In this document: positions 5,395-5,781 of the stretch, in pieces
Layout: each line of letters opens with the position of its first letter
How positions within the stretch are numbered: the first letter of the stretch is position 1
DNA from: Escherichia coli
GTDB lineage: Bacteria; Pseudomonadota; Gammaproteobacteria; Enterobacterales; Enterobacteriaceae
Strand: one strand, 5' to 3'
Length of the DNA stretch: 64,000 nt
NCBI RefSeq assembly: GCF_048403405.1
Contig: NZ_CP183129.1
Notes under the pieces: generated by a model
The model's database searches: none
What the model was told of the DNA's origin: nothing
The model's input: only the letters and a program-made list of their open reading frames with translations
Program-made: the position numbers and the translations under genes

Positions 5395-5781
5395 TTAACG
5401 ATACTTCTGGTGATAGGCGTTGCGGGTCGTTTTCAGTTGCTCTGCGGCAGCCTGCGCTTCTTTTACTTTACCTTCATTTGCCAGCTTCAGCGCGTCGTCA
5501 ATCTGACCGACCAGAATATCGAAACCGTGGCGGAAGTCTTTCATTTCCGGGCTGTCCGGTGATTTGCCTTCGAGCTTCGGCGGCGTCGCTTTTTGCGCAT
5601 CCAGCGCTGCGGCGCGCATCTTCGTTAACGCGTCTTTGACTTGCGCCGCGTTATCGGCTTTTTCGACCACTTTTAAATTGTCGTTGAGGGTTTCCATATT
5701 GTCTTCAAGATCAGCGGCAAACGACGCCGAACTGAATACCAACGAGGAGACTGCAAGAATAGCTAACAGGCTTTTACGCAT
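5395..5781 (-). CDS. cybC: soluble cytochrome b562, full length with signal peptide
   Basis: 128 aa ORF matching cytochrome b562 ([16 protein letters not shown]...NAYHQKYR) with an N-terminal signal sequence. Confidence 0.9.

Follow-up and report, generated by a model that had tools for sequence, protein, structure and literature searches.

Cytochrome b562 is a small periplasmic electron-transfer/haem protein with an absorbance at 562 nm, and it is also the parent of the BRIL fusion tag. Its precursor is exported and cut after Ala22, and the mature protein is a four-helix bundle that holds one non-covalent haem b; it has no known physiological redox partner. The closest described system is the b562 of B-type E. 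coli (PDB 256b, 1apc and 9tmp), whose gene, cybC, lies between pmbA and nrdG and encodes 128 residues. The function of b562 has been described as unknown (PMC3349551). The periplasm of BL21-type strains contains native b562, which co-purifies from BL21/T7 Express and contaminates anti-BRIL Fab preparations from B strains (PMC13041623). At the transcript level, cybC mRNA is far higher in the B strain REL606 than in MG1655 (PMC3446290). It is useful to know which hosts carry an intact cybC when expression strains are chosen for BRIL or anti-BRIL Fab work.

The second described system is that of K-12. In the curated record of MG1655 (NC_000913.3), cybC (b4236) is a 368-nt pseudogene located between tldE/pmbA and nrdG, and it has been termed a pseudogene in print as well (PMC3349551). 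A literature search for the original K-strain cloning of cybC (NM522) and for b4236 returned no relevant paper from the library searched. The gene cybC is a known one, and the K-12 lesion already stands in the reference annotation and the literature. What is added here is the precise 26-bp lesion, its distribution over 5,426 genomes, a discrepancy in PGAP annotation and a catalogue of the structural variants at the locus; none of these additions would surprise a specialist, and they have little significance beyond bookkeeping.

The window (i.e., the whole stretch of 64,000 nt that was analysed, from E. coli assembly GCF_048403405.1, contig NZ_CP183129.1) carries cybC in complete form. The six-frame ORF list gives an uninterrupted ORF with an ATG start, 128 codons and a stop codon at exactly 5395–5781 on the minus strand, encoding the precursor of soluble cytochrome b562. 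The product matches the Pfam family PF07361 (Cytochrom_B562) with its residues 24–128, covering profile positions 1–102 of 102 (E = 5.8e-34; 117.2 bits, the cut-off being 30), and aligns gaplessly over its full length with PDB 9tmp_A (“soluble cytochrome b562”, 128 aa) at 126/128 identical residues; chance would not produce agreement of this order. It differs from the B-type protein by two substitutions only, namely I39V and D72G in the precursor (I17V and D50G in the mature protein), both of which lie outside the haem ligand positions; V39 is shared by the K-12 remnant and by the Salmonella-like 4er9 sequence. The earlier note on this DNA had read the ORF as a full-length cytochrome b562 with its signal peptide, and had held that the intact protein was characterised from E. 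coli strains other than K-12, and both statements stand.

The division of the precursor can be followed on the solved structures. The 106-residue mature chains of 256b and 1apc align without gaps to residues 23–128 of the window product, so that residues 1–22 (5716–5781, minus strand) are assigned as the cleaved signal peptide, in which a basic n-region, a hydrophobic core and an S-F-A cleavage motif can be read and which is identical to that of the 9tmp_A precursor. After removal of these 22 residues, the mature part of 106 residues (5398–5715, minus strand) has M at residue 7 (codon 5695–5697) and H at residue 102 (codon 5410–5412), as in the B-type protein; Met7 and His102 are the axial haem ligands of b562 (PDB 256b). 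Strain MS 69-1 has the identical sequence, and there RefSeq places a cybC annotation (WP_001232246.1) on the same coordinates. As for its expression, a Shine-Dalgarno-like AAGGAA (5789–5794, minus strand) is found 7 nt upstream of the ATG and would presumably direct translation of the 128-residue precursor, whose signal peptide would then lead to periplasmic export and to cleavage after Ala22. From its 98% identity to solved structures, the 106-residue mature protein would be expected to fold into a four-helix bundle and to bind one haem b via Met7 and His102, giving soluble cytochrome b562. Judged by its sequence, 5395–5781 is almost certainly an ordinary, functional wild-type cybC allele of a natural, non-K-12 E. 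coli.

The K-12 allele has the same flanking genes and the same upstream spacer, which contains an ERIC repeat, and its remaining 368 nt are 96.5% identical to the window allele. However, 26 nt of the window, GTGAGCAATGCGTAAAAGCCTGTTAG (5763–5788, minus strand), which occur there once, are absent from MG1655, and the K-12 remnant aligns with the window from 5762 downward. That MG1655 carries cybC as a pseudogene or fragment had been put forward in the earlier note; the comparison of the locus agrees with this, and no identical intact sequence exists in MG1655. The alignment is unambiguous, with no microhomology at the ends of the deletion. What is lost consists of the 7-nt spacer after the Shine-Dalgarno-like motif, the ATG, codons 2–6 and one base, the first, of codon 7. 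Codons 1–6 including the start codon are thus removed, and with them the signal peptide's basic n-region (M-R-K), whereas the window allele is complete. Beyond the deletion, the two alleles differ at residue 72 (D72 in K-12, G72 in the window) and by A121S and Q125K. A K-12 ancestor lost the 26 bp and was thereby left with neither a proper start codon nor an n-region for export, and it is this loss that underlies the pseudogene label of the curated record. The longest ORF that remains in MG1655 cybC has 115 aa and begins at a TTG inside the signal peptide.

Nevertheless, the label “pseudogene” applies to the curated MG1655 record but not to every record of K-12. In K-12 BW25113 (NZ_CP009273.1), PGAP gives the deleted allele as a “cytochrome b562” CDS of 366 nt and 121 aa (WP_023649327.1), which starts at an ATT just 2 nt past the AAGGAA. 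Because of this 2-nt spacing and of the missing n-region, efficient translation and export from the ATT start are judged unlikely. The ATT start hides the K-12 lesion, so pan-genome or orthology pipelines may score K-12 as cybC-positive.

The distribution of the two alleles was determined with probes. The junction probe was a 54-mer with 27 nt on either side of the MG1655 junction, on which megablast seeds only if the junction is present. Of 5,426 complete E. coli genomes, 355 carry the K-12 junction, every match being full-length and 100% identical. When 60 of the junction-positive rows were sampled evenly, each of the 60 either could be recognised as a K-12 derivative or was a laboratory genome of K-12 size, among them DH5alpha, DH1, BW25113, C600, MC4100, TG1, HMS174, NCM3722, RP437, J53, S17-1 and ER strains; the exclusivity of the deletion to K-12 rests on these 60 sampled rows and on the 100% identity of all 355 junction matches. 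With the reciprocal 54-mer, the intact 5′ end was found in at least 4,614 of the 5,426 genomes, i.e., at least 85%. The 457 genomes matched by neither probe presumably carry SNPs that break every 28-mer, or other rearrangements. In summary, E. coli normally carries an intact cybC, and the 26-bp deletion is a marker of the K-12 lineage, a clean one at a single locus. Since intact cybC is normal in the species, its presence excludes K-12 only and points to no particular strain.

The strain background was read from the whole window. Local BLAST against MG1655 4,396,000–4,472,000 gave four collinear segments that span window positions 3–64000 and MG1655 4,465,220–4,401,084 in reverse orientation. 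All 66 mapped MG1655 genes from treB to hflX (66/66) are found in the same order and orientation, as the earlier note had said of the gene order, which is common to most E. coli and is necessary but not sufficient for K-12. The aligned portion of ~63,900 bases contains 1,490 mismatches, that is, 97.7% identity or 2.3% divergence, and the individual genes are 92.7–100% identical at the nucleotide level. A K-12 genome would be expected to show near-identity, taken as >99.9% to MG1655 across housekeeping DNA, and the window at 97.7% falls well outside it. These figures, together with the absence of the K-12 junction, bear out the note's suggestion that the source is not K-12, and the window is confirmed as coming from a wild-type, non-K-12 E. 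coli.

The opposite reading is that the window is K-12, that the pseudogene status of MG1655 was misremembered or is erroneous, and that an intact cybC is therefore uninformative on the strain. It could draw on the BW25113 record, in which PGAP presents the K-12 allele as an ordinary “cytochrome b562” CDS; however, that CDS of 121 aa is the deleted allele begun at ATT, and the curated MG1655 record has a pseudogene. Moreover, the deletion shared by the 355 independent K-12-type assemblies is absent from the window, which differs from MG1655 by 2.3% over its 64 kb. A K-12 source with a misannotated cybC is refuted by the deletion alignment, the distribution of the junction and the 97.7% identity, and its chance of being correct is vanishingly small.

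Among complete genomes, those ~100% identical to all three segments of the window are 4621, MS 69-1, TUM1226, TUM14771, GN02461 and OX030728; the records of the set are CP146675, CP103479, CP135719, CP128875, CP095533 and OX030728. These six are 4.99–5.29 Mb in size, with Homo sapiens as the host in five and no host given for TUM1226; MS 69-1 is a colon isolate of the Human Microbiome Project (PMC10958030). The next best genomes are 98.8–99.4% identical to the window segments. From the ~100% identity to six natural isolates, it follows at the level of sequence that the window comes from the natural lineage of MS 69-1, 4621 and the TUM strains, not from K-12. A K-12-derived hybrid (by Hfr cross, P1 transduction or engineering) in which this segment came from a wild donor was weighed against that origin. 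P1 transduces up to ~100 kb and K-12/B hybrids exist among laboratory strains, both of which speak for such a source, and a mosaic genome is compatible with a single 64-kb window. Against it, the divergence from MG1655 continues to either end of the window, without any stretch identical to K-12, and the sole ~100% matches are the six isolates of 4.99–5.29 Mb, not K-12-sized laboratory genomes. The hybrid is thus regarded as extremely unlikely, and the natural lineage of MS 69-1 is the preferred source.

ERIC or IRU elements (enterobacterial repetitive intergenic consensus) are imperfect palindromes of ~127 nt. The 182-nt spacer between pmbA and cybC can be folded as RNA into a hairpin of ~126 nt (−71.9 kcal/mol, z −6.8), and the element of 124 nt at about 5802–5925, which lies 20 nt in front of the cybC start codon, has the features of the family: the length, the long hairpin, the conserved termini TACACAAAATCATTC ... 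GAAGGATGAAGTGTA and the intergenic position. In a sensitive search, the number of places detected in a genome had a median of 3 and a maximum of 6. Paralogs of the element lie in the queA-acpH, puuR-puuC and rhlB-gppA spacers; they are 72–75% identical to it, with shared termini and hairpin, and the consensus hairpin of the element and the three paralogs has 41 pairs, 11 of them with compensatory changes. In 1,547 of 5,431 E. coli records, the best match of the spacer element was just 60–80% identical and located elsewhere in the genome. The idea that this class consisted of reverse-strand self-matches of the palindrome was rejected, as local BLAST gave no such self-match; the matches are genuine paralogs, and the genomes of this class have no copy of the element in their cybC spacer.

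The assignment to ERIC was made with the sequence spanned by the primers ERIC1R and ERIC2, which were verified in 233 papers. The cores of the queA-acpH, puuR-puuC and rhlB-gppA paralogs match it at 40/42, 34/42 and 31/40 positions, whereas the window copy, with a remodelled central core, matches at 23/31; under lenient scoring, 0 of 1,000 shuffles reached the score of the window copy, and under strict scoring, 28 of 2,000 shuffles did as well. ERIC membership was accepted via the paralogs with clear cores and not via the strict core score. Given the ERIC cores of the paralogs and the shared termini and hairpin, 5802–5925 is, as read from sequence comparison, a diverged ERIC/IRU copy with a remodelled core. 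ERIC repeats and their presence/absence polymorphisms are already known kinds of things, and a literature search for ERIC together with cybC, pmbA or gppA found no relevant paper in the library searched.

The ERIC-containing cybC spacer is the majority form, found in ~72% of E. coli records and present in K-12, and the element is absent from ~28%, the genomes in which a paralog is the best match being those without it at cybC. In strain C1, an example of the empty site, the pmbA-cybC spacer is 54 nt long and the locus measures 573 bp against 701 bp. Filled and empty (C1) sites differ by 139 vs 11 nt that cannot be aligned, with no clean target-site duplication between them. Little weight is given to the proposal that the K-12 remnant is translated from PGAP's ATT into a poorly exported apo-b562, or that the ERIC polymorphism in the leader alters the b562 level, and it is considered unlikely. 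If the effect of the leader were real, the ERIC hairpin would alter the stability or translation of the pmbA-cybC transcript, and strains would differ systematically in their b562 level.

With regard to transcription, cybC has pmbA (tldE; 5964–7316, minus strand) as its upstream neighbour on the same strand and nrdG (4886–5350, plus strand) as its convergent downstream neighbour, both taken from the ORF list, the annotation and the MG1655 mapping. A consensus scan of 5300–6050 gave no sigma-70 promoter, and its terminator-like matches were on the plus strand only, one of them being the small hairpin after pmbA. Since the scan shows no sigma-70 promoter and the gap between pmbA and cybC is only 54 nt when the ERIC repeat is absent, cybC is probably co-transcribed in part with pmbA, at least some of its transcription arising by read-through. 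The short GC-rich hairpin just past the pmbA stop codon (5941–5956) is kept in both filled and empty spacers and may serve as a pmbA-distal terminator or stabiliser. At the other end of the gene, a 14-bp stem-loop (5355–5386; −23.3 kcal/mol, z −6.5) separates the 3′ ends of the convergent genes cybC and nrdG; it gave no canonical terminator score in the consensus scan and is probably a shared cybC/nrdG terminator or 3′-end protector. Rfam, searched over the whole window at gathering thresholds, had no match at the cybC locus, which means that the leader hairpin belongs to no curated RNA family.

Other structural variants are found at the same locus, and in ~264 genomes the match extends over less than 80% of the 701-nt query for the locus. 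In CFSAN027343 (NZ_CP037943.1), the IS66-family element ISEc22 splits cybC near its 5′ end, with a breakpoint that corresponds to window position ~5704. cybC has been inactivated independently at least twice (the K-12 deletion and ISEc22), which fits a dispensable gene. Separately, Ecol_316 (NZ_CP018957.1) carries a relE/relB toxin-antitoxin cassette of ~670 bp in the gap that separates nrdG from the cybC 3′ end, at a site equivalent to window ~5351–5394, and the carriers of this cassette include next-closest genomes in the region.

A further reading is that the window gene is intact but silent or non-functional, i.e., a cryptic gene disabled by the ERIC repeat in its leader, by D72G/I39V or by lack of a promoter. 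The consensus scan of 5300–6050 without a promoter and the 124-nt structured repeat 20 nt upstream of the start codon would agree with this, as would the dispensability of a gene lost in K-12, split by an IS66-family element elsewhere and of unknown physiological role (PMC3349551). However, the ERIC-containing spacer is what ~72% of E. coli records have, and B-type strains, with the same gene arrangement and their ERIC status left aside, contain abundant b562 (PMC13041623; PMC3446290). Moreover, the gene has kept its two haem ligands and the whole signal peptide, and the two substitutions fall outside the ligand positions. A cryptic cybC is therefore held to be very unlikely, and the functional wild-type allele remains the preferred reading.

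Several further differences from MG1655 were observed along the window. The reverse of the cybC case is seen in ytfI (26540–27478, minus strand), where a premature stop shortens the product to 303 aa, against 312 aa in MG1655, and 17 amino-acid differences are present, but only the last 9 residues are missing. The gene most diverged from MG1655 is ulaC (43001–43465; 92.7% nucleotide identity, 6/154 residues different) in the ula operon (41473–45193), and the other ula genes are 94.6–96.8% identical, which hints at a recombination patch in ula. The spacers at 4702–4885, 7962–8043 and 55951–55961 do not align with MG1655 and differ in repeat content: the nrdD-nrdG spacer has a CCCTC/GAGGG-type hairpin where K-12 has two REP units, the yjgA-mpl spacer is unlike that of MG1655, and between rnr and rlmB the window is without a REP-containing stretch of ~90 nt present in MG1655. 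The part of the window from 25001 to 50000 also lacks an insertion of ~1.75 kb, annotated as an InsQ/TnpB-family RNA-guided endonuclease, that several of the next-closest genomes carry. Finally, four Rfam matches above the gathering score were obtained in the window, namely the ES239 sRNA (28498–28620, minus strand), the RpsF leader (40054–40138, minus strand), the STnc450 sRNA (23869–23926, plus strand) and naRNA4, a REP-derived nucleoid-associated RNA (14177–14253, minus strand), all of which are expected for this chromosomal region.
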